Shown piece after piece: positions 1,741-63,311 of a DNA stretch of 64,000 nucleotides. The DNA comes from Mobula hypostoma. Lineage: Eukaryota. Below the pieces are notes generated by a model that saw only the letters and a program-made list of their open reading frames with translations, made no database searches and had not been told where the DNA came from. Every line of letters starts with the position of its first letter. The first letter of the stretch is position 1. Where the stretch lies: NCBI RefSeq assembly GCF_963921235.1, contig NC_086097.1, positions 22,260,001-22,324,000 on the forward strand, in the 5' to 3' direction. A program made the translations under genes and the position numbers.

Positions 1741-1989
1741 CTTGATAATTTAAAGTATAATTTTTTTCGAAAGTTCATTTACATAATGTGGGTGTGACTG
1801 CAAGAACATAATGTGCTGTTCACATTATGAAAAGGAAATAGAGATCGGAGAGGGTGGTTCTGGAAGTGTGAGGATTTAATTATCAAGAAGGGAGAAACAG
1901 ACTGGATCTCCTTGCACTTTAGAAGAGAAAACAGAAAAGTGATCTAAATAACACCTTTAAGATTATGGATGGGCTTGGTAAATGTAGCA

Positions 1990-2535
1990 CACACACAACA
2001 TGCTGGAGGAACTCAGCAGGTCAGGCAGCATCTATGGAGAGGAATAAAGAGTCCATGTTTTGGGTCAGAAAGGGGGACGGAAGAGGCAAGAATAAAATAG
2101 GGAGAGGGGAAGAAGTACAATCTGGCAGGTGATTGGTGAAGCCAGCTGGGGGAGGTGTGATGAACTGAGAATTTGGGATGTGGTAGGAGGAAAAGGTAAA
2201 GGGCTGAAGAAGGAGGAATCGAGAAAGGAAAGGAGAGTGGACCATGGGAGAATGAAGAGGAGGAAGGCACCAGAGGGAGGTGATAGGCAGGTGAGGAGAA
2301 GGGAAGGGTTAAGAGGAGATCCAAAGTAAGGAAAGAAAAGAGAAGGAAGACAGGAGGGGAACAGATGATGAGAAATTGCAGAAATCGATGTTCATGTTGT
2401 CGGTTCGGAAGCTATCCAAACGGAATATGAGGGGTTGCTCCTTCAACCTGATGGTGGCCTCGTTGTGAAAGAACAAGTCAGAATAGGAATGGGAATTGAA
2501 ATTTAAGTGTCTGGCCACCAGGAAATCCCCCCTGT
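1990..2535 (-). mobile_element. Penelope-like element 3' part (GIY-YIG endonuclease C-terminus plus pyrimidine-rich 3' UTR)
   Basis: ORF 2309-2518(-) ARHLNFNSHSYSD..EATIRLKEQPLIFRLDSFRTDNMNIDF matches the PLE C-terminal motif (xxHFN...E..LI..L....P.GMN). Confidence 0.8.
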
Positions 2536-2536
2536 T

Positions 2537-3290: not shown

Positions 3291-3964
3291 TGGATTGCTG
3301 TACTAGACAGAATGGGGCAATGGCCTCTTGCTGTGCCATGAAGTCAGACTGATTTAATTAAAGGCCGCTTGTTGGGATCTGAGTGCACTATTAGAGTGCA
3401 AATCAAGTAATATTACCCCTGTGCTACCTTACCCAAACCAAGTTGGCCAGTGGTTAAGCTGCTGACCTTAACATTCAAAAGTTAAATTCAGGCCAGATTC
3501 CATGAAATGAGATGATACCTGAGGCTCCCTCTGTTGTGTGAAACAATTAACTGGTATAAACATGTCCTTTCCTTTCCTCCCCTCCCAGCCTGAGGAGGAC
3601 ACTGACTGTGGAAGCCTTGCTTAACCTGCTGTGTGCCATCTGTCCAAAACGGACACGATCAAAAGTGGTCAAATACAAAATACCATCCTACCTCCAAACC
3701 CCTTCAATACTTTTGAGATGGTCACAGTGCATCCTGCCAAATGATCAAGGATCAACTTCATTCACCATATGCATTTACATGTATTAAGAGCTTGCTTTGA
3801 TGTATTGGCAGGACATGCAACAAAGTATCAACATTCAGCAATTATAAATAATAATGGATTATATTATCTACTTATATAATATAAAGTTAGAGGTTAGAGT
3901 ATAGACATGGAATAAAATGTGTATAAATACATGGATCCAGCATGCATTTACAATGTAAACAGCA

Positions 3965-8549: not shown

Positions 8550-9282
8550 AAGTTCAAAGTAAATTATATATATCACCAGATACAATCCTGAGATTCATTT
8601 TCTTACAGACATACTCAGCAAATCCATTAACCATAACAGAATCAATGAAAGACCGCACACAAGAGTAGACAACCGATGTGCAAATGACAAACTGTACGTA
8701 TACAAAAGGAAAAAAAAAATAATAACTACCTCAGCAATAGCTATTGGGAACATGAGATGAAAAGTCCTTGAAAGTGAGTCCATAGGTTGTGAAAACAGGT
8801 CAGTGTTGAGGCAAGTGAAGATGTGTGAAGTTATCCCCTCGGGTTCAAGAGCCTGATAGTTGAGGGGTAATAACTGTTCCCAAACCTGGTGGCATAAGTC
8901 CCAAGGCCTTTGTACCTTCTTCATGATTGCAGCAGTGAGTACAGAGAATTTTCTAGGTGATGGGAGTCCCTGATGATTGATGCTGCCTTTTTACAACAAT
9001 GCTCCGTGTAGATGTGTTCAGTGGTGGGGGAGGGCTTTACTTGTGATGGTCTGGGCTGTATCCATGACTCTTTGTAGGATTTTCCGTTCAAGGGCATTGG
9101 TGTTTCCATAGCAGGCTGTGATGCAGCCAGTGAATATACTCTCCACCACACATCTAAGGTTTGCTAAAGTTCTAGATGTCATGTTGAATCTTCACAGACG
9201 TCTGAGGAAGTAGAGGTACTGCCACGTTTTCTCCATAGTTGCACTTATATGCCGAGCCCAGGACAGGTCCTCTGAAATGATT
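8550..9282 (-). mobile_element. Rex1/Babar-type LINE 3' fragment
   Basis: HCCKKAASIIRDSHH C-terminal motif in ORF 8921-9151; tail (AACTTTG)n. Confidence 0.85.
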
Positions 9283-9630: not shown

Positions 9631-10934
9631 AATTTCTCACTTTTTCATTAAAATTATAAATCTTGCACATGGGTTCCTTGCATGCATTGTTGGCTGAGAT
9701 TAATGTGGACATGAGATACTCTGCCTGGTGTTTTAAGATATATTTTGACTTGCTTTTGTTTTTTCTCTTTCAGCAATAAATCGACTACAAAGCATGTGAG
9801 AGGATATAAATGTAATTTTTTATCCAGGGCTGAAAGAGTGAAGCTGAAACAAAAGGTCAACTACATTGATATCAATGCCAGCAGCACAACTTTCTTGTCA
9901 GTCTTTACTTATATGACATGCAAGCAGACCACAAGTATACACAGAGGACTGCTCTGTACAGCTGCCTACCACGGTTTGTTGAACTTAACACACAGCTTTA
10001 CAATCTCTCAAGAGAGATTCATGGATTCAGCACCATCTTTGAAAACATTTATTCACACAAGTGTACATTCAGCCCATTTAATCTGCTCTTCTATTTAATT
10101 AGATCATCATTGATTTATTAAATAGATTGATTATCAACCCAATTTCAGTTAGCCTGCAGCAACTTTTGCCCCCGGCTTTTGAAGTGGGTTCCTGCCTTAA
10201 ATATATTGAGACTCTGCTTCCAACATTCTTAAAGGAAAAAAAAAATTCCAAAGATTTGCTATCCTATGTGAGAAATTTTCCCTCATACTTGACTTAGCTA
10301 AGTAACCCTCTGTTTTAAACAGCAACCTTTAGTATTTTTATATGAGGAAAGATCTTGTGTTCCACTCTCTTCGAGATGTTGTGAAAACTGTGGCCTATAC
10401 AACTTCCTTCATAACACCACACACCTATTACAGATATTAGTCAAACACACTTTCACTGTACTGCCCCAAGCACATTAATATCCTTCTTTAAATAAGGAGA
10501 CCAATATGGTAGGCACTGGGGACCACAGATTCTGGCATCTGGAGCAAGCAACAAAATGCTGGAAGAACTCTGCAGTCCTGGAAATATCTGTGGAATGAAA
10601 TGGGTGAAGGGCCTAAGACAAAGGGGCCCTGGAGAGATCAGGTGTAGGGTCAATCTGAAATTTTCAACCATACATTTTCCTCCATAGACGCTACCTGACC
10701 CATTAAACTCCACAAGCATCTTGTTTGCTTCAGACCGATGATGCACATACAAGGTTCAGGAAGTGATTAACCCTCAAACATCAGGCTCTAAAACCAAAAG
10801 GGATCACGTCACTCAACTTCACTTGCTTCATCACTGAACAGTTCCCACAAGCTGTGGATTCACTTTTCAATGACTCTTCATCTCATAACACACTGGAGGA
10901 ACTCAGCAGGTCGGGCAGCATTCATGGAAACAAT

Positions 10935-10972
10935 CAGTCAACGTTTTGGGCTGGAACCCTTCATCAGGACTG
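10935..10972 (-). ncRNA. Hammerhead ribozyme motif with GAAA>AAAA core change
   Basis: Reverse complement CAGTC-CTGATGA-AGGGTTCCAGCCC-AAAA-C-GTT-GACTG. Confidence 0.6.
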
Positions 10973-11086
10973 AAGAGGGAAGGGGCAGAAGCCCTGTAAA
11001 GAAGGTTTTTCCACCAGGAACCTACCAGCCTTCTCCTTCCCACCCTCCCCCTACCTTCTTTATAGGACCTCTGCCCCTTCCCTCTT

Positions 11087-11124
11087 CAGTCCTGACGAAG
11101 GGTTCTGGCCTGAAACGTTGACTG
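11087..11124 (+). ncRNA. Minimal type I hammerhead ribozyme motif (core intact)
   Basis: CAGTC-CTGACGA-A-GGGTTCTGGCCT-GAAA-C-GTT-GACTG: stem I CAGTC/GACTG, CUGANGA and GAAA boxes, NUH triplet GUU. Confidence 0.75.
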
Positions 11125-11753
11125 TTCATTTCCACGGACGCTGCCCGACCTGCTGAGTTCCTCCAGCATGTTGTGAGTGTTGCTTTGACCCCAGCATCTG
11201 CCGATTATTTTGTGCTTACTCTTCATCTCATGTTCTTGAGATTTATTGCTTATTTATTTATTTTTTCTTTTTGGATTTGAGCAGTTTGTTGTCTTTTGCC
11301 CAAGTTGGTGCTATCTTTCTTTGATTCTGTCATGGTTATACACAAGAAATCCAAAATAGAATATATCTGCAAGAAATGAATCTCAGGATTGCATATAGTG
11401 ATAGATATGTACTTTGAGAATAAATGCACTTTGAACTTTAATAAGCACTAAAAATGTATCTCATCAAAGTCATATATAATCAGAATCAGATTTATTATCA
11501 CCGAGTTAAATATTGTGCTTTTTTGTTTTGTGGCAGCAGTACCATGCAAAAACATTAACATTACTATAAATTACAAAATAAACGAATAATGGAAGTGAAA
11601 TTGATAACAAAATTGTGGACCTTACAGAAAACTGATGGTGAAGGAGAAGAAGCTGTTCTTAAATTGTTGAGTGTGAGAATTCCTCCTCCCCCTGACGAGG
11701 GCTTGTCCTCCCTAATTTTGTTTTCTATTATCCAAGCAACAATAAATGTGTAT

Positions 11754-14443: not shown

Positions 14444-14969
14444 CGAGGATGGATTGATAAGTTTGTGGCCGAAGGTAGAAGGAGTCAGTTTTAGAAAACC
14501 TAGCACATTTATTTTTCAACATAGTCCCCTCCTACATTTACACACTTAGTCCAGAGGTCGTGGAGCATACGGATCCCTTCTTTGTAGAAGTCGGTGTCTT
14601 GGACCTCCAGGAAGTGGTCCACAGCAGGGGTGATTGATAAGTTTGTAGCCTAAGGGAGAAGGAGATGAGTTATACAGCTCTTGTTATACACACGTGCAGG
14701 TCAGCTCTTTGAGTGATAATGCAGAAAGTTTGAAGTTAATAACTCATCTCCTTCTACCTCAGGCCATGAACTTATCAATCGCCCTTGCTGTGGACCACTT
14801 TTCTGAAGGTCCAAGATGCCGACTTCTACAAAGAAGGGATCCGTATGCTCCACGGGCACTGGACTAAGTGTGTAAATGTAGGAGGGGACTATGTTGAAAA
14901 ATAAATGTGCTAGGTTTTCTAAAATTGACTCCTTCTACCTTAGGCCACGAACTTACCAATCACCCCTTG
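14444..14969. mobile_element. Mariner-derived palindromic MITE with TA target-site duplication
   Basis: TA at 14442-14443 and 14970-14971; ~230-bp inverted arms; 14821-14904 reads DFYKEGIRMLHGHWTKCVNVGGDYVEK*, a mariner transposase C-terminus. Confidence 0.9.
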
Positions 14970-25499: not shown

Positions 25500-26145
25500 C
25501 TAATCATCTGCACTCACCCCATCTTCCCACTGTCCCTCTTGTCCTTATCTACCACCCCATCAACCTTCGCGTCCAACACAACTTCCTCCGCAACTTCTGC
25601 CATCTCCAGAGGGAACCCACCAATAAACATATCTTTACCCGCCATAAATTGAGGGATTGCTTTGTCGAGCATCCCTGCACCATCCTCCATAAGTGGGACT
25701 TCCTGGTGGCCAAACATTTTAATTCTGACCCCCATTCCCTTTCCAATGTGTCAACCCATGGCCTCCTCTTGGGCCACGATGAGGCCACCCTCAGAGTGGA
25801 GGAGCAGCACCTTATATTCCGTCTGGGTAGCCGCCAACCTGATGGCATGAATGTAGATATCTCCTTCCGGTGAACCAAACATCCTCCCCCGCCCCCCACC
25901 CACCCACCCTATCCCCCACTCTGACCTTTTACTTCTTTTCACTCACCTCTCCAATTAAGTTCTTTTGTCTCCAGCCCTTGACCTTTGCCACCCACCTGGT
26001 TTCACCTATCACCTTCCAGCTAGCCTTTCCCCCTCCCTCCACTTTCTAATTCAGGCATCTCCCCTCTTCCCTCTCAGTCCTGAGGAAGGGTCTCGGGTTG
26101 AAATACTGCCTGACCTGCTGAGTTCTCCCAGAATTTTGTGTGTGG
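25500..26145 (+). mobile_element. Penelope-like element 3' part (GIY-YIG region)
   Basis: ORF 25421-25873 VPLVLIYHP...VAKHFNSDPHS...EEQHLIFRLGSRQPDGMNVDIS; truncated hammerhead CTGAGGAAGGGTCTCGGGTTGAAA. Confidence 0.85.
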
Positions 26146-27569
26146 TGCTAATGAGATGGTGTTGTGAGTCCAGGTTCGGTCATCCATTAAGCGCACTCCA
26201 TGGAGCTCTGTTCTCTTCACCCTCTCCACGGCAGAGCCGCTGATGTTCAGTGGAGAGTGGTCGAGCTGCACCTTGCTGAAGTCTACGGTCCTCTCTTTTG
26301 TCTCTTGTTAGTTGGTTGTTCTCACACATCTTGGCAAGCCTCTCTGTATGCTGACTCAATTGTTGTTGCTGATGAAGCCGACCACTGTCGTCACCAGTGA
26401 ACTTGATGATATAGTTTGAGCTGAATCTGGCAGTGCAGTCATGAGTCAACAGTGTGAACTGCAGAAGGCTGAGTACAGAGCCCAAGGGAGCACCAGTGCT
26501 CAGCATGGGATGTTTCTGCCGACTTGGACTGACTGGGGTCCTTCTGCCGAGAAATCCAAGGTCCACTTAGAGGGAGGAGTGATGAGTCCCAAGGACAGTT
26601 TACCCACCAGCCTCTGAGTTTTAATTCAGTTCACTTTACTCACCCTCGTGACTTATAAAGAGAAACAATGGGGTCTACATTGGCCTAGTTAAACATTGGA
26701 TCCATCTGGTCTGATAAGTATAGTTGAGAAACATCACACACAGTTGATGCCAATTAATAGAAAAACAGTATAAATGATAGAAGGCAGCTGGGGTTGGTAG
26801 TGACAGAGAGAAGACACGGAATCTGTCCCTCAGCCTCAGTGTCTGTGACGGCACTTGTCTGCAGCCCATTTGTAGGTCTTTCTAGTTGGTGAGAATCGTA
26901 CTTTTGTTTTGAAATCCTTCGAAAGTTATAAATCTCCTTAAATCTTTATAATTTATATTATAACTGTATAACTTCTCAGAATTAAACACATTTCACTTAA
27001 AAATAAATTATGTTTAATTTGCTTCGTTAGTTGGAACTATCTCTTTGCTGCTGGGTATGGGTGGCTCACTAATTGAAATGGAGATTGTTTACAGCTAGCC
27101 CCCCTTCAGGAAGAAAATAAACTAGTGAAGTAAAATAATTCTTGAAGTGTACGTTCGTACAGTACAATCTCCCTAAGGTGAGGATACGAGTAGATGCTTA
27201 TATCATGTGGAGCTAAAAGTTTTAAGTTGAGTCCTCTCAAATGGGTACATTCAATATCATCACAGGTGGAATAAATAAGGGACTGAATGGACTACCCCTA
27301 GTGCTGATTCTTATGGTCACATCAAGCCAAAATGGCCCAGTCACTCAAATAAATGACCCTGCTTATTTCAGCACAATGTAATCGACAGGAGACTTACCCT
27401 GCACTGTATTACGTTAATGATTCATTCTGGGCTCTTTCCTGTCACCTTCCAATGCTGAAAGGTGTGGGCAGTGTTCGCTGTCTATGGTGCCCAATGTCAC
27501 TGCTGAGGCCCCATCATGCGATGGGCATGCTGGGGAGCTCATGGGCACTGTTGGCAGAGTCGCTGGTCA

Positions 27570-28772: not shown

Positions 28773-30525
28773 AGTACAGTAGCGTGGCGGTTAGCGCAAT
28801 CACTTTACAACACGAGCGATCAACGATCGGGGTTCAATTCCCACCACTGGATACAAGGAGTTTGTACGTTCTCACCGTGACCTAGTGTGATTCCTTTGAG
28901 TGCTCTGGTTTTATTCTCCATTCCAAAGATATTTGAGTTAGGATTAGTACGTTGTACGCATGCGATATTAGCGCCAAAAACATGGCGATACTTGTGGGGT
29001 GCTCCCAGCACATCCTCGGACAGTGTTAGTCATTGATGTGTGCTTAGCCCACGTCTCTACTCTGTCTGCACCCATGACTGTGTGGCTCGGCACAGCTCAA
29101 ATGACATCTATAAATTTGTTGATGACACAACTATTGTTGGCAGGATTTCAGATGGTGGTGAGAAGGCGTACAGGAGCAAGATATATCAGCTAGTTGAGTG
29201 GTGTCACAGCAATAGCCTTGCACTCAAAGTCAGTGAGACCAAAGAACTGATTGTGGATTTCAGAAAGAGTAAGATGAGGGAACACATGCCAGTCCTCACA
29301 GAGGGATCAGAAGTGGAAGGAGTGAGCAATTTCAAGGTCCAGGGTGTCAACATCTCTGAGGATCTATACTGCGCCCAACATATTGATACAATTACCAAGA
29401 AGACATGACAGCAACTATATTTCATAAGGAGTTTGTAGAGATTTGGTATATCACCAAAGACGCTGGAAAATTTCTACAGACTACCCATCGCTGTCTAGTA
29501 TGGGGGCTGGGGGAAAGGGGGGGGGGGCTACAGCACAAGATCAAAAGAAGCTGTAGAAAGTTGTGCCCTCAGACAGCTCCATCATGGGCTCTAGCAAGGA
29601 ACGATGCCTTAAAAAGGTGGCATCCATCGTTGAGGACCCCCATCACCCAGGAAATGCTCTGTTCTCATTGCTACCATTAGGCAGAAAGTACAGGAGCCTT
29701 CAGGAGCAGCTTGTTCCTCTGTGCTATCAGATTTCTGAATCTAGATCCTCAGAGATGAGTATAGTATAGTATAGATCCTCAGAGATGAGTAGTATAGTAT
29801 AGTATAGATCCTCAGAGATGAGTATAGTATAGATCCTCAGAGATGAGTAGTATAGTATAGATCCTCAGAGATGAGTATAGTATAGATCCTCAGAGATGAG
29901 TATAGTATAGTATAGATCCTCAGAGATGAGTATAGTATAGATCCTCAGAGATGAGTATAGTGTAGAGTATAGTATAGATCCTTAGAGATGAGTATAGTAT
30001 ATAGTATAGATCCTCAGATGAGTACAGTATATAGATGAGTATAGTATATAGTATATAGTATAGATCATCAGAGATGTTGACACCCTGGAACTTGAAATTG
30101 CTCACTCCTTCCACTTCTGATCCCTCTGTGAGGACTGGCATGTGTTCCCTCATCTTACCCTTTCTAAAACCACAGTCAGTTCTTTGGTCTCACTGACCTT
30201 GAGTGCAAGGCTATTGCTGTGACACCACTCAACCAGCTGATATATCTTGCTCCTGTACGCCTTCTCGTCACCTTCTGAAATCCTGCCAACAATAGTTGTA
30301 TCATCAGCAAATCTATAGATGTCATTTGAGCTGTGCCGAGCCACACAGTCATGGGTGCAGACAGAGTAGAGACGTGGGCTAAGCACACATCAATGACTAA
30401 CACTGTTCGAGCCCATAAACATTACCTCAATTATATTAAACCTGATTCTGATTCTGACACAAAGATGATGCATTTCACTTTATGTTTTGATGTTTCAATG
30501 TACATGACAAATAAAGGTAATCTAA
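28773..30525 (+). mobile_element. V-SINE interrupted by a Rex1 LINE (approx. 29039-30457) that carries an internal inverted duplication
   Basis: SINE head at 28773, LINE RT ORF 29040-29408 (YKFVDDTTIVG), LINE tail GATTCTGATTCTGA at ~30444-30457, SINE tail resumes after 30458. Confidence 0.85.
29741..30062. repeat. Imperfect minisatellite (TAGATCCTCAGAGATGAG plus variable (TATAG)n)
   Basis: About 10 units directly visible; the unit is the reverse complement of LINE sequence CATCTCTGAGGATCTATACT. Confidence 0.95.
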
Positions 30526-42375: not shown

Positions 42376-42849
42376 TTAAGGACCACTGAGCATATTCCCC
42401 TTCTGTCATCTTCAAAAGGCTCACCAGCCGGGATATGCTTCTTCTCATTACCATTATCATGGACAAGATACAGGAGCCTGGAAAACCACACTCAAAAATT
42501 TAAGAACAGCTTTTTCCCCTCTACCATCAGATTTCTGAATGGACATTAAACCCGTGTACACCACCCCACTATTCCTCTTTTGCAATATTCATTTATTTAT
42601 TGCAGCTTATAGTAATTTTTTTAATGTATCACACTGTACTGCTGCCAAAACAATAAATTTCATGACATTTATCCAATAATAAACCTGATTCTGATTCTGA
42701 AGTTTAAGGGAGACATGCGGGGCAGGTTTTATTTACACAGAGTGGTGGGTGCCTGAGACGGACGCAGCTGATACAATATTGGTGTTTAACAGGCTGTTCA
42801 ATACATGATGATGCAGATCAAGCACAGGCAGAAGAAATTTAGTTTTAAA

Positions 42850-43050
42850 CACAAGAGGTTCTGCAGATGCTGGAAATCTTGAGCAACACAGACAAAGTGC
42901 TGGAGGAACTCAGCATCAATGGAGGGGAATAAACAACTGACATCTGGGGCTGAAGAATCTCAGCCAAAATGTCAACTGTTTATGCCTCCCCATAGATGCT
43001 GCCTGACTTGCTGAGGTCCTCCAGCATTTTGTGTGAGTGGCTCAAGAAAT
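42850..43050. mobile_element. Collapsed palindromic Penelope-derived module
   Basis: GTGCTGGAGGAACTCAGC...GCTGAGGTCCTCCAGCAT inverted arms meeting within the hammerhead region. Confidence 0.75.
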
Positions 43051-43189
43051 ATGCACATTAGTTTGTTTGTCAATCTTGGTTTGTTGCAGTTTTTCATCGA
43101 TTTGCTTGCATTTCTCTGTTCTACTGTGAAAGTCCACGAGAAAACGATTCCCAAGATAGTGGTTGGTTGGCATGTGTCTGTCTCAAAGG

Positions 43190-44268: not shown

Positions 44269-45879
44269 GGTGATATATACCTACATTGATACTAAATTTA
44301 CTTTCAACTTTGAACTTAGAAATTTAGTTCCATTCAGCATAATTGTTAGCACAGGCATTGTGGGCTGGAGGGCCTGTTCCTGTGCTGTTCTCTATGGGAA
44401 GGAGAGATACATATGGTCATAGAGAGATAGTCAGAGCTAGTAAATGGGCAGACAGATAGCTGCAAGATGCAGTGTGTGGTGGGACTGCTGCTGCTACCTG
44501 TTATTATTACAGTGATAGATTCAATCATCAGGTGACTTTCCAGATGCCACTCAGGATGGTGCCTTCAACAGGACTCTGGAGGGGCACCAGTAGAGTCCAT
44601 TTTCTCTATGAGCCAACTGGTGCGGCAGCTGTTCACCTCATCTTCTCCATTCTCTCCGTCTTTCCCTTCTCTATGGGAGGCACCTATTCAAATGCAAACA
44701 CTTGACATTTCCTGGAGATTCCCACTTGGATATCTGCCAGGCTTGGCTAGTCACAGTCCCAGTTACTACAATCATATGCAAAATAAGCCTGTCTTGTCTC
44801 AAAATATGTAGACCAAGATGTGTAAACATGCCTTAAAACTACTTATAAACAGAAGAAATTCTGTAGATGCTGGAAATCCAAAGCAACATACATAAAATGC
44901 TGGAGGAACTCAGCAGGTTAGGCAGCATCCATGGAACTTAACAGCCGATGTTTATAAAAGCAAAAACAAGCTACTTATAAAAGCTAACGCAGCGATTAGG
45001 GAAATGCTTTAGAGTGCATTAGTTGTAAGTCGGGTTTGGATATCTACTGCTGCCTGTCTGGAGTTTGTATGTTCTCCCCATGTTTGTGAGGGTTTCCCCT
45101 TGGTGGTGCAGTTTCCCCCATGTTCCAAAGCTGTACAGGATAGAGATCGGGTTCATAAGTTGTAGGCATGCTACGTTGGTTTCGGAAGCATGGCGATAGG
45201 TGTGGGCTGCTCCCCAGTAAGTGGACTTCGTTTGTCATTGATGAAAACGAAGCCTTTCATCAAATGTTCTGACGTTTCGATGTACACATGACAAACGAAT
45301 ATTGAGGAAACAGCGAGTCTGCAGAAGAACTTAGATCTAAGTAATAGCGTATAGGTAAGTGTATAAAGTTTGGTAAAAGGAATAACAGCATAGATTATTT
45401 TCTAAGTGGGGAGAGAATTCACATATCAGAGATACAAAGGGTCTTGGTAGTCCTTATGCACGACTCCCTGAAGATTAACTTGCAGGTTGAGTTGATAGTA
45501 AGAAAGCCAAATACAATGTTAGCATTCATTTCAAGAGGACTAGAATATAAAAGCACAAATGTAATGTTGAGGCTTTATAAGGTACTGATCAGACCACACT
45601 TGGCGTATTGTGAAAGTTGTGTACTCCTTATCTATATTAAACAGTGGTTGAGCCACATCCCTGATAGGAACCAAGACAAATGCAAACGACCATCGAGCCT
45701 TTCCACCTTGCACCTATTAATTCTCTCTCCCACAGACAACCTACATTACTCACTTCACCTCTGAAAAGGGATTCCCACTGAATGTCAATGTATTGAAAAT
45801 TTATTATCAAACTACATACTATATACTACCTTGAAATTCATTTTCTTGCCAGCATTTACAGGAAAATAAAGAAATAAAT

Positions 45880-46065
45880 ATCACACACAAAATGCTGGCG
45901 GAACTCAGCAAGCCAGGCAGCACCCACCGAAAGGAATAAACAGCCGATGTTTTATCATGAAATGTCGACTGTTTATTCCTTTCCATAGATGCTGTCTGAT
46001 CTGCTGAGTTCATCTGGCATTTTGTGTGTGTGTTACTCTGGATTTTTAGCTACTGCTGAATCTCG
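45880..46065. mobile_element. Collapsed palindromic Penelope-derived module (~150-bp hairpin)
   Basis: ACACACAAAATGCTGG...AAAGGAATAAACAGCCGATGTTT / GAAATGTCGACTGTTTATTCCTTT...GCATTTTGTGTGT. Confidence 0.8.
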
Positions 46066-56922: not shown

Positions 56923-57889
56923 AAGACTGTAGAGGTCTCGGGTCTTGGCCAGTTCCATGATGAGCTCAGTACTCTCCACCATCTAGCGTATCTCCAAAAG
57001 ATGATACCTCTAGAAGTTGCATCCACCATTAAGGATCTTCACCATCTGGGACATACCCTCTTCTCATTACTATCATTGTGGAGGAGGTACAGCAGCCTGA
57101 AGGCCCACACTCAGTGAATAGCAACAACTCCTTCCTCTCCATCATCAGATTTGAAAATAGTCCAGAAAACGTGAATGCTACCTTGTTAATAGTTCTTTTT
57201 TGCACTATCTATTTATTTTGCAATTTGTCGTGATGTTACGTTTCTGAGCCGTACTGGTGCTGCAAAACAACAAATATCACGTCATAGAAGACTGATACTA
57301 AATCTGATTCTGATTCTGATGTCTGCCACGACATGGTGAGAACAGATATTTGCTTATTCCAGCTAGATTTTCTGCAGATATTCAGCTTCTTCCGGCCAAC
57401 GACAGTTCATCTTTATCATAAAGAGGACTGTTTAAAAGACCTACTTAAACACTATTCCTCTTTTGCAATATTTATTTAGTTTTATAACTGACAGCAAATT
57501 CTTATATCTTGCACTGTACTGCTGTCAAAAACAACAAGTTTCAGGACACATATCAGTGATCATAAACCTGATTCAGATTCAAGATAGAAGCTTGATCCTT
57601 GAGCTTGGTGGTCATGCTCTCAAGCCTTTGTATTTTGGAGGGGGCAGAAGAGAGAGTGACCGGGTAGAGAGGGGTCTTTGATGACATTGGCTGCTTTCTT
57701 GAGGCAGTGGGAGGTGGGCAGCTTGGAATCGATGAGCAAAGGCCAGTTCCTCCAGAAGTCTGACTGTTTTATTTGAGACTTCCATTTCTGTCATCTAATT
57801 GGTCATCTCTAACTGCAATACTCAGTCTATATGTGAAAATGTATTTTTTTGTTCTGCTGTTTCAGTAAACGTTGCATAACTTCACCTGA

Positions 57890-58550
57890 AAGTCTGCGGG
57901 GGTCATATATTGTATCTGGTGCTCCTGGTGAGACTTCATTACATCATTGAGACCTGACGCACATTTTGGGACTGCTTTGTTGACCACCTTCGCTCTGTCC
58001 ACCACAAAAGGCAGGATCCATTTCAATTTGACTTCCCATTCTCATTCTGACCTGTCTGTCTATGGCATCCTCTGCTGCCATGACGTGGCCAAATTCAGTT
58101 TGGAGGATCAAGACCTCATATTCTATATGGGTAGCCTCCAACATGCCGGCATGAACAATGATTTCTCTATCTTCCAGTAATCTCTACCCTCTTCCCATTC
58201 CCCATGTTGGTTACCCTCTCACCCCCTCTCTTCTCCTCACTTGTCCATCACCTCCTTTTGGTTCCCCTCCTCCTTCTCTTTCTTACATGGTCCACCATCC
58301 TCTCCTATCAGATTCCTTCTTCAGTCTTTTACCTCTTAAGTCTATCACCCGTCAGCTCCCCACTCACAGACACCCCTCTCATCTGGTCTCACCTGTCATC
58401 TGCCAGCTTGTACTTCTTCCCCTGCCCTCTCCCACTTCTTATGCTGTCTCTACCCACTTCCTTCCCAGTCTTGATGAAGGGTTTCAGCCCAAAATATCAA
58501 CTGTTAATCCCAGTCTGATCTGCTGAGTTCCTCCAGCATTTGGTGTGTGT
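57890..58550 (+). mobile_element. Penelope-like element 3' part with degenerate hammerhead
   Basis: IHFNLTSHSHSDLSVYGIL..EDQDLIFYMGSLQHAGMNNDFS; GTCTTGATGAAGGGTTTCAGCCCAAAATATC. Confidence 0.8.
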
Positions 58551-59317
58551 TATATAAAATACATTTCACAATCTTGGACTGCAGTCTCTAACTCTGTAAT
58601 TCATGTTGACTAAAAGGATGCATTTTTCAGTAACGTCTTTGAAAATATAGATCTGTGCTGTACATTAAGATAGGACTTCCCATAGGCTACTTAAAAATTG
58701 CACATTCCTTAGATCATCAATGTTTAGACAAAGTGATTCTCACATCCTTGCCTCAATGTAAGCATAAATCAACTTCACCCTTTTAGTCTGATGGATAAAT
58801 TTGCCTCTCTTTACATAAATTGCCCTCTGTTCCAGCAAAGTAATTTGTAGGTTCAAAGATAAACATTTCTAATGTTCTTTGAATGAGACTCAATCAACCT
58901 TAAATCACGGTATTGTACAGTAAGTGAGCACATATGGCGGAATCCTTGGTGTAGGCTTCATCAAGTTAAGCTGGAGTGCATTGGTTAGGAGCCCACCGAA
59001 CCCTGGAATTGTTATGCAAAGAAGCAGGTCCTTTAGTTCAGTAACATCCCTGAGAGGTCAACCCATCAGCAGATCTCCTGTAAGCTATCCTCTGACATCT
59101 CAGATGCAAGGTTTCGACTCTAATCATTAACACGAATATATATTCACAGCCATCCAAACTTCAGTGAGTATACACAGAGAAACAAGCAGAAAGCAGACAA
59201 CTACACACTCAAATCCACATACAGTTACATACACGAAGCTGCAACCACACACACAAATACATATAGATGCGCTAATGCATACAAACACACACTCACCCTG
59301 CAGATTCACACACTTGC

Positions 59318-60529: not shown

Positions 60530-61095
60530 AGAGCACAGAAAATGCTGGAGGAACTCAGAAGGCCAGGCAACATCTAAAGAGGAAATAAGCAGCATTTCAG
60601 GCCAAGACTCTTTACCGGGACAGGAAAGGAAGAGGGCAGAAGCCAGAGTAAGAAGCTTGCTGATGATAGGTGAGACCAGGTGAGGGGACAGGTGGGTAGT
60701 GGGCGAGGGGGGATGAAGCTGGAAGGTGATAGGTGAAAGAGGTGAAGGGCTAAATAAAAAGGAATCTAATAGCACATTGTCCTCTCCTATCAGATTCCTT
60801 CTTCTACAACACTTTATCTCTTCCACCTATCACCTCCCAGATTCTCAGTTCACCCCAGTCACCCCTTCCCCGTCACCTGGTCTCACATCACCTGCCAGTT
60901 GGTAATCTCCTTCCCCTCCCGCGCCCCCCCCCCCACCGATCTTTCTGTTCTTCCTTACTTTTAGTCCTGATGAAGGGTCTTGACCTGAAATATCGACTAT
61001 TCATTCCCCTCTATAGATGCTGCCTGATCTGCTAACTGCCTCCAGCATTTTGTGCCTGTTACTCAAGATTTCCACCATCAGCAGAATCTCCTGTG
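60530..61095. mobile_element. Fold-back Penelope-like element (~560 bp, two inverted 3' modules)
   Basis: Left arm ~60530-60772 (-) and right arm ~60786-61095 (+); AGGAATCTAATAG / CTATCAGATTCCT at the fold. Confidence 0.8.
60962..60999 (+). ncRNA. Minimal type I hammerhead ribozyme motif (core intact)
   Basis: TAGTC-CTGATGA-AGGGTCTTGACCT-GAAA-T-ATC-GACTA; stem I TAGTC/GACTA, AUC triplet. Confidence 0.75.
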
Positions 61096-61754
61096 TTTAT
61101 GAACACAAGTACATAGCTTGGCACCAAACCAATATATTGTAAGTGTTGAACCTGTCAATCTCTGTGCAGAGTTTACAAACCAGCCTTCTCCAATTGCCTC
61201 ACCTCCCTTTAAAATCTTCCCTCTTGAACAAGTCTCTTTCCATTTTCATCTAATCTACTCAATGGACTTGTTGCGGTCATTAGCTTTGGCAGCAGTCTGA
61301 TATTTCCCCTTGCATCTCCATGGAGATCTGTAATCATTTTGCAAAGGCTATATCATGATTTTGACTTGTTTCTAATGCAATATTGTTGATCTGGGTTCTG
61401 ACTCGTTCACCAGTTTTCCACTAGGCAGTGGTTATGGGAATGGCTTTCACATCTGTAACAGCACAGCATTTCTTTCCAATGTTTTACTGCAAAATAAACT
61501 TCATTAAAAATTCTTAATCTGTGTATTTTTTAGGAAATTAAAAGGATCAAATGCACATAAATGATAATTAATAATTTCAAAACAGTAAATTACTAACTCA
61601 TAAAAGCATAGCACCTGTACAGTACAGCATGAAACAAGCCTTTGGCCCATCTCCTCCACACCGATCAGTGAGAACCTTTCTATACTAATCCCAGCAGCCA
61701 ACACAGAACGTCTCAGCAAAGTACAGGCCCTTCGATCCACAATGGTGACCTTTT

Positions 61755-62030: not shown

Positions 62031-62167
62031 AGCTTACTCAAAGATTAATCTAACCGTCTCCTCCTACATAGCCCTCCATTTCTCTGTCGTAACTTGCATC
62101 TATGGAAATGAATAGTCAATGATTTGTGCTGAGACCCTTCATCAGGACTTATTTATTGTTTAAAAAT

Positions 62168-62590
62168 GCAAACACGAGAAAATCTGCAGATGCTGGAAAC
62201 TCAAGCAACACACGCAAAACGCTGGTGGAACGCAGCAGGCCAAGCAGCATCTATAGGAAGAAATACAGTCGACGTTTTGGGTCGAGACCCTTTGTCAGGA
62301 CTAATGGAAAAAAGAGATAGTAAGAGATTTGAAAGTGGGAGGGGGAGATCTGAAATGATAGGAGAAGACAAGAGGGAGAGGGATGAAGCCAAGAGCTGGG
62401 AAGTTGTTTGGCAAAAGGGATAAGGCTGGAGAAGGGGGAGGATCATAGGACGGAAGGCCTTGGAAGAAAGAAAGGGGGAGGGGAGCACAAGAGGAAGATG
62501 GAGAACAGGCAAGGAGTTATTGTGAGAGGGAAAGAGAGAAAAAAAATAAAAATTAGGGATGGAGTAAGAAGGGGAGGGGGGCATTAACCT
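62168..62590 (-). mobile_element. Penelope-like 3' module with hammerhead at 62267-62302 (CpG-decayed core)
   Basis: Reverse complement AGTC-CTGACAA-AGGGTCTCGACCC-AAAA-C-GTC-GACT; 3' end TCCAGCATCTGCAGATTTTCTCGTGTTTG also seen at ~28652-28772. Confidence 0.85.
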
Positions 62591-63311
62591 TCTTACCCCA
62601 TCCCTAGTTTTTATTTATTTAAACAAAACAAACTGCCAGTGCAAGAACTTTCTCAGCGTTTAACATAGCAAAGAAGCATTCCCAAGTATAACATAACAAA
62701 GAAGCCATTTTAATTAGCCTACACAGTAACATAAAGGACAAAACCCCCTTACAAAGCCAACACACCATATACCTTCTCAATCTCCTTAAAAGTAAGGGGA
62801 AAGAGAGTGCTCTATCATGCAGCATATTCAAGGCTCCGATCAATAGCTTCTGAGATTCTAACAGTATAGAGACTGGACGAGACAGGACTTTGTCCATGAT
62901 TTTATTTAGCTTTATCAGAATTTGATTTCTATTTCTTTGTTACTTCAACAGACAAAAGCAATTATTGATTATCATTTCTTGTTGCTATTGATTTGAATTT
63001 TCAGGATTACTAAATTAGAGCTTTGGAGGCAGATAATTTATCAATCACTATATATCATTCAAACCTTCATTTAATTATCTGTCAAAATGTAAATAAAGTT
63101 AGTCATTAATATATATCTTCTATGTTTTATATTATTCGAGAAAAAGAACTGAAAAAGATTGAAGATGTCCACTTCAGACTGTCAGCTCCATTTTATATCC
63201 TCTGGCCAATGATCACTTTATTATGGAATTCTGAGAATTGCTGATGGAGTTTTTCTTTTTTTCATCATTATGTAAGTGTGAGATCAAATTGACTTTTGTT
63301 ATACTGACTGA

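Follow-up and report, generated by a model that had tools for sequence, protein, structure and literature searches.

Head-to-head hammerhead fold-backs in the ray Mobula hypostoma as probable two-strand insertions of a Neptune-type Penelope-like element

The hairpin at positions 10887–11217 of a 64,000-nucleotide stretch of Mobula hypostoma DNA (the whole of which is called the window below) is one insertion of two 5′-truncated ends of a Neptune-type Penelope-like element (PLE), placed head to head. The explanation that we regard as probable is that such fold-backs are single insertions of two 5′-truncated ends of an autonomous Neptune-type PLE, with both nicked target strands likely priming on uncut RNA. 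An initial annotation had instead proposed an ORF-less, retrozyme-like mobile family whose ribozymes could cut transcripts of either strand. Neither part of that proposal is supported: junctions are private to individual insertions, arms often reach into the ORF and coding copies are plentiful, while the minus-strand ribozyme lacks G12 and both ribozymes are predicted to be misfolded in the whole fold-back. The locus is a dead insertion that would not work as a two-way ribozyme. Its parts are as follows.

10873–10886, plus strand: left target-site duplication (TSD), 14 bp (direct repeat; empty-site alignment)
10887–11006, minus strand: inverted pLTR arm without tail, spanning about −36 to +88 relative to the opening G of the core motif (BLAST against natural copies)
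10935–10972, minus strand: minimal hammerhead carrying U17 and, at 10947, G12A; predicted to be dead (sequence)
11004–11006, no strand: head-to-head junction with a 3-nt arm overlap (BLAST ends, gap −3)
11004–11217, plus strand: forward pLTR arm with tail, spanning about −83 to +128, which shares 95% identity with the end of an RT and GIY-YIG copy (L021)
11087–11124, plus strand: minimal type I hammerhead with intact core, G10.1-U11.1 wobble, U17, and palindromic stem III; predicted cut after 11119
11178–11217, plus strand: 40-nt one-sided tail, which in a full-length unit (L252) continues into the 5′ end of the ORF
11218–11231, plus strand: right TSD (direct repeat)

The inverted arms (10882–11006 and 11053–11177) are 125 nt each and 86% complementary, and the fold-back has a folding z-score of −20.4 (100 shuffles). 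The inverted structure of ∼330 bp with two copies is as first described, but the copies do not face each other: the arms diverge, with their 5′ ends joined in the middle of the unit. The 14-bp direct repeat around the fold-back was absent from the initial list. When the insertion is excised in silico, the flanks are collinear with a paralogous older repeat at 8554–8890 (70.6% identity over 350 columns, E = 6e-41), and 10887–11217 is therefore a single insertion of 331 bases. Of 120 sites compared, 16 differ between the arms, and 15 of these are transitions, a pattern that fits independent decay. One arm carries the 40-nt tail and the other is tailless. The tailed arm is the longer one, so that snap-back copying stays compatible with this particular copy.

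All 12 hammerhead cores that had been listed as recurrences of one motif were found at their given positions. The four considered intact (11087, 60962, 47963, and 15769) do retain the catalytic nucleotides, but a descriptor that includes stems I and II is passed by only two of the 12 cores, 11087 and 60962. The identification of the motif as the minimal type I hammerhead of PLEs, with a palindromic stem III, holds for the focal plus-strand core, which passes the descriptor. The minus-strand core at 10935–10972 had been called mutated and fails owing to G12A. The role of G12 in hammerhead catalysis is established. In the hammerhead stems, 94.6% of cells are paired, and the covariation signal is weak: 3 of 10 pairs change on both sides among 15 hand-picked copies, a level reached by 30 of 500 shuffles. 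An Rfam search at E ≤ 1 did not report any hammerhead family and returned only chance matches to miRNA hairpins and UTR elements.

Both focal ribozymes are predicted to form when the cores are folded alone (helix probability 0.85–0.99), but this probability drops to 0.00 in the transcript, whether whole or nascent. In a read-through transcript, which by its predicted fold would form a long hairpin, as had been suggested, each ribozyme comes after an antisense copy of itself, and both are predicted to be sequestered in the hairpin. However, the plus arm taken from −60 misfolds also without its partner (helix probability 0.01), and the predictions thus leave room for causes of misfolding other than the hairpin.

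At 95% identity, the plus arm matches the 3′ end of a copy (L021) that has RT and GIY-YIG sequence upstream. Domain matches (RVT_1, E = 1.4e-7; GIY-YIG, E = 7.9e-5) place an RT and, at the C-terminus, a GIY-YIG domain in the parent ORF, and another copy (L135) has a 796-aa frame with DKG and RT motifs. The L021 translation contains a C-x3-C-x2-C linker ahead of the GIY-YIG region. A CX2-5CxxC linker between RT and endonuclease is given as a mark of Neptune/Nematis elements in the available text of PMC8557442, and by this linker the parent element is assigned, from its sequence, to the Neptune/Nematis type. A partial tandem of ∼3.5 kb (L252) has pLTR matches at 3367 and 6849 that flank the ORF as pseudo-LTRs with a hammerhead, and its tail runs into the 5′ end of the ORF. 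The RT search gave 70,427 first-look candidates. Among the 150 that were scored, open frames reach up to 845 aa, some with one stop, and a fully intact ORF was not established. The family has the marks of an endonuclease-bearing PLE, namely an RT and GIY-YIG ORF, a pLTR tandem, an inverted 5′-truncated copy, a one-sided tail, and a variable TSD.

The family is very abundant, as had been claimed. Exact 34-nt cores number 8,564 genome-wide (control matches, 0), and CpG-degenerate cores 88,402. Sixty regularly spaced 10-kb stretches (a 600-kb sample) contain 133 pLTR-end matches, or ∼220 ends per Mb, which extrapolates to ∼770,000 ends over 3.48 Gb. The same sample holds 17 descriptor-passing family cores and one unrelated match (0 in 10 shuffles), corresponding by extrapolation to ∼100,000 such cores genome-wide, and PLE references cover at least 5.9% of it. 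Subfamily A cores in this sample read TG in 15 cases, CG in six, and CA in none, with U at 11.1 in most. Since CpG decay should affect both strands, the G10.1-U11.1 wobble was likely already present in the dominant source elements, perhaps with a weaker ribozyme as a result. It is doubtful that U11.1 of the focal plus arm is mere CpG decay, since U11.1 dominates the related subfamily.

Within the window, nhmmer finds 24 pLTR-end matches. Other family members there include the following.

42849–43053, no strand: older short PLE fold-back, no TSD recovered
45875–46065, no strand: older short PLE fold-back, no TSD recovered
60534–61096, no strand: longer old PLE fold-back whose plus arm has the descriptor-passing core 60962, no TSD recovered
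25532–26158, plus strand: 5′-truncated PLE with linker and GIY-YIG fragment (GIY-YIG 25532–25864), 3′ UTR, and broken core
57875–58569, plus strand: 5′-truncated PLE with GIY-YIG fragment (57875–58177), 3′ UTR, and core with C3U and G12A
1988–2536, minus strand: 5′-truncated PLE with GIY-YIG fragment (2372–2536) and pLTR end with core deleted

TSDs were thus sought for the three older window fold-backs and none was recovered. Pfam gave no match for two window frames, and tblastn recovered the PLE coding fragments instead. The initial annotation had the ribozyme module ending GIY-YIG fragments near 1990, 25500, and 57890. The fragments are real, although the pLTR end near 1990 has lost its core. 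At 62096–62319, two tandem minus-strand cores lie ∼150 bp apart, both with G12A.

A young set was assembled from 100 listed of the 8,564 exact cores, yielding 92 perfect-core arms (89 units) at 90 loci. Fold-backs with two terminal arms make up 38 of the 89 units, a proportion that is inflated because two-armed units are sampled more often, and these 38 have 38 distinct junctions. A TSD is present in 26 of 36 testable young units versus 0 of 142 mismatched-flank controls, and an uncontrolled wider search finds one in 85 of 95 units, mostly of 13–14 bp. The expectation that PLEs insert with an inverted copy is supported by these fold-backs with an enclosing TSD.

The two arms of a fold-back usually end differently. 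Across all loci there are 134 fold-backs, and 123 pair one tailed with one tailless arm. In a filtered set (n = 55) from which query-selected, junction-selected, RT-selected, old, and B2-mapped units were removed, the pairing is seen in 50 units (p = 1e-10 versus 0.5). As to the exceptions, one two-tailed unit (L193) is an upstream pLTR continuing into the ORF, and in several tailless pairs an arm is cut by the locus edge or by a short reference. Young perfect-core arms end in two groups, at about +86 to +105 and about +120 to +134. Solo copies use the same inner end site, as 17 of 41 are tailless. Both end sites follow a similar GU-rich motif in subfamilies A and B, and the segment from ribozyme to tail is predicted to be a long stem–loop in both; the motif or stem–loop is a possible recognition signal for two RT starts.

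The 50 one-tailed units of the filtered set have 50 distinct junctions, and a further count gives distinct junctions in 78 of 79 units, so that the breakpoints are unique almost throughout and dispersed copies sharing a junction by descent were not seen in these sets. This is the outcome that the initial annotation had itself named as pointing to insertion by-products and against a mobile family. Junction ends, which were placed by BLAST against natural copies, may be off by a few bases. The 79 junctions comprise 40 gaps, 28 overlaps, and 11 blunt joins; with 40 gapped and 11 blunt, microhomology is not the rule. Recurrent junctions do appear in junction-selected sets, at 9 of 30 and 8 of 30 loci. 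They lie on microhomologies of 3–4 nt and carry the tail on either arm (L203 versus L208). A single 4-nt palindrome, immediately downstream of the ribozyme, is the joining point in seven fold-backs (L244–L250), all of which combine a tailed with a tailless arm. In another fold-back (L172:2760–3233; C1:19346082–19352115), with a probable 15-bp TSD seen by eye, the forward arm is a 140-bp head-to-tail array of 2.2 units with two cores and the same junction twice. It looks like a product of rolling-circle copying or repeated template jumping. We rejected this tandem as a retrozyme family, since its junction is found nowhere else in the genome and it is one private array among 89 young units.

Arm lengths show whether either arm could have been copied from the other. 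In 28 of the 50 units it is the tailless arm that extends more in the 5′ direction, in 17 the tailed arm is longer, and in five the two are level. Neither arm of these 28 units can therefore derive from its partner by copying; in a larger set, 48 of 95 units have mutually non-nested arms. The 5′ extents of paired arms are correlated (Spearman 0.54, n = 50).

Paired arms come mostly from one source, because they share subfamily-diagnostic transversions: discordance is found at 10 of 160 sites, versus 38–52% for random pairs and a background of 1.1%. This value exceeds the 1.1% transversion background (p = 1e-5), with p = 0.11 against the 4% rate of all mismatches. A minority of pairs, ∼13% by estimate from these sites, look like products of different templates. 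A stronger claim of two RNAs per fold-back, from 22 of 87 discordant sites, was dropped when the larger set without indel-prone sites or terminal sites at or beyond +78 gave the 10 of 160. One TSD-flanked fold-back (L174; C1:19802222–19808255) has arms that differ at several linked subfamily sites and is a candidate for two RNA templates in one insertion. Post-insertion conversion could account for part of the likeness between arms.

The available preprint text of PMC8557442 treats the origin of PLE inverted repeats and of the one-sided tail as an unsettled question. In vitro data exist for PAc, a Poseidon PLE from Anolis. According to the accessible portions of Frangieh et al. (2024, PMC11167929), both target strands are cut and extended, two internal RT starts delimit a tail that is continuous with the ORF, and ribozyme cleavage is not required for insertion. 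The ray element is like PAc in the continuity of its tail with the ORF and, probably, in two RT starts that bracket this tail, in extension of both cut strands, and in insertion without ribozyme cleavage. It differs in having the CX2-5CxxC linker and belongs to another clade. In those portions of the PAc account, no link was found between two-strand extension and inverted insertions, and a search of the open literature for a twin-priming model of PLE inversions gave nothing relevant beyond this paper.

The steps of the mechanism that we favor are all read from genomic end products. The endonuclease would nick both target strands ∼13–14 nt apart. Synthesis would begin at about +130, the tail end, from one 3′-OH and ∼35–40 nt further inside, at about +95, from the other. 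The template for both strands would mostly be a single RNA, or else RNAs from one source element, and synthesis would pass through an uncut hammerhead. The truncated cDNAs would then be joined centrally, often via a few bases of microhomology, and repair would leave the TSD. The two hammerheads would be passengers in the pLTR, trapped in a hairpin in any read-through transcript. We infer priming from both nicks because of the two end groups, the tail pairing, the non-nested arms, the shared source, and the Poseidon in vitro data. In LINE-1 twin priming, the second target strand primes a second cDNA and yields an inversion joined by microhomology, with arms that cover different parts of the RNA. 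In the ray fold-backs, by contrast, both arms span the same element end and the second start is fixed.

The first alternative is an ORF-less retrozyme- or MITE-like family, in which trans-acting factors would mobilize the fold-back unit itself and RNA of both strands would be cut by its ribozymes. In its favor, ∼4% of cores start right at the front edge of the motif, which yields many short ORF-less copies. The recurring junctions of the selected sets, including the seven near-identical palindromic joins, and the 2.2-unit tandem also speak for it. Yet the recurrent joins coincide with short microhomologies and may carry the tail on one arm or the other, the tandem junction is unique in the genome, all 50 unselected units have distinct junctions, and the focal ribozymes are predicted to be sequestered, one of them also bearing G12A. 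We consider this explanation very improbable. Less credible still is an origin of the inverted pair from two independent insertions or a later inversion. Neighbors are to be expected in a family of this density, but a single TSD surrounds both arms, the arms abut within a few bases, and 50 of 55 units obey the tail rule.

In a snap-back or self-priming scheme, one copy (cDNA, or antisense RNA in the available text of PMC3846280) folds back and is copied into the inverted arm, which is how head-to-head palindromes are interpreted there. Perfect palindromic joins do exist in the ray, diagnostic states are mostly common to both arms, and the 17 units with a longer tailed arm, like the focal one, are as the scheme would have them. 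It is nevertheless unlikely, given that 28 of 50 units (48 of 95 in the larger set) have sequence private to each arm, and it gives no account of the fixed stop of the second arm, which solo copies also use. Dual priming on two different RNAs held as a dimer, for instance through the palindromic stem III, receives from us slightly more credit but is still improbable. The stem itself, the conservation of the motif between subfamilies, the few arm pairs that differ at linked sites (L174), and a protein predicted to be dimeric in Anolis (PMC11167929, accessible portions) are in its favor. The low discordance between arms, which reaches only ∼13% of pairs, is against it, and two RNAs of one source locus would be indistinguishable from one RNA used twice.

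The copied repeat is usually uncut, because few copies end at the cut site and many end at the front edge of the core. At the cut site, 206 of 73,004 copies have an apparent 5′ end, versus 213 and 232 at two neighboring positions; corrected for random flanks that pass the pattern, the values are ∼1.6% versus ∼0.8%. We looked for an excess of arm 5′ ends at this position and found none (2 of 100 arms). When 30 cut-site matches were checked, 22 were inverted joins, most with an overlap of 1–4 nt. Ends at the front edge amount to 3,668 of 88,402 (∼4%; ∼11.6% when corrected). All 30 front-edge cases checked have no sense PLE sequence upstream, 13 have an inverted partner, and a TSD is found in 9 of 17 solos. 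This pile-up could mark the 5′ end of the RNA or, alternatively, a stall at the ribozyme fold. Between subfamilies, identity is 34–35 of 38 positions in the motif versus 30–31 of 58 in the upstream flank and 41–42 of 60 and 20–22 of 33 in other flanking segments, as judged from single natural copies. The greater conservation of the motif suggests selection in active elements.

On balance, we lean toward a more general proposal, in which PLE integration would be a two-strand, two-start reaction carried out by a dimeric RT–endonuclease on the same uncleaved RNA, the 5′ end of which would often lie at the front edge of the hammerhead. If this is true, then the head-to-head repeat, the one-sided tail, and the 13–14-bp TSD are explained together, and the role of the hammerhead is other than template-making, possibly RNA dimerization via the palindromic stem III. 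Because this genome has tens of thousands of young copies, end statistics test integration models directly, and they give sharp predictions for the existing in vitro PLE system.

Both the fold-back layout and the minimal hammerhead are already published. Endonuclease-bearing PLEs have a 5′-truncated inverted copy adjoining at the 5′ end, a one-sided tail of 30–40 bp, and a TSD, with the tail explained by endonuclease resolution and the palindrome by self-priming (Craig et al. 2021, PMC8557442; Pen2a_Av, PMC3846280; available text of both). The ray insertions share with these the head-to-head inverted copy, the tail at one end, the TSD, and the pLTR hammerhead. They differ in that 38 of 89 young units (an inflated share) are fold-backs, TSDs center on 13–14 bp, and most arms are mutually non-nested.

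Metazoan PLE hammerheads, as described in the available text of Cervera and De la Peña (2014, PMC4209133), are type I with a helix I of 4–5 bp, an extra base between 9 and 10.1, and a palindromic 15.2–16.2 region. They occur mostly as single motifs in truncated copies, with opposite-strand pairs 100–700 bp apart in Schistosoma and totals of ∼4,000 for the coelacanth and ∼9,000 for Xenopus. The ray motifs are likewise type I with a helix I of this length, the extra base, a minimal palindromic stem III, mostly single occurrence in truncated copies, and opposite-strand pairs, but differ in their number (8,564 exact and, by extrapolation, ∼100,000 descriptor-passing cores), a 4-bp stem II, and a very uniform sequence. 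Non-LTR (animal) retrozymes consist of one fixed unit repeated head to tail, with two or more complete ribozymes (Li et al. 2026, preprint 10.64898/2026.07.22.740005, accessible text). The focal unit resembles them in being PLE-derived and ORF-less with a type I hammerhead, whereas it is a head-to-head pair with private ends and not a head-to-tail array.

The minimal-hammerhead load of this genome is unusually large. By extrapolation it includes many long hairpins, which could feed RNA silencing if transcribed. Other inverted structures occur in the window. A 510-bp palindrome at 14452–14961 is 86% self-complementary, MITE-like, and unrelated to the PLE. Inverted repeats of 356 bp with 96% identity bound 29015–30411, and frames inside resemble by eye the RT tail of a LINE-type element; this is possibly an inverted LINE insertion. 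Purine/pyrimidine hairpins at 60670–60886 and 62540–62620 give chance Rfam miRNA matches below gathering scores, and the former is the center of the 60534–61096 fold-back.
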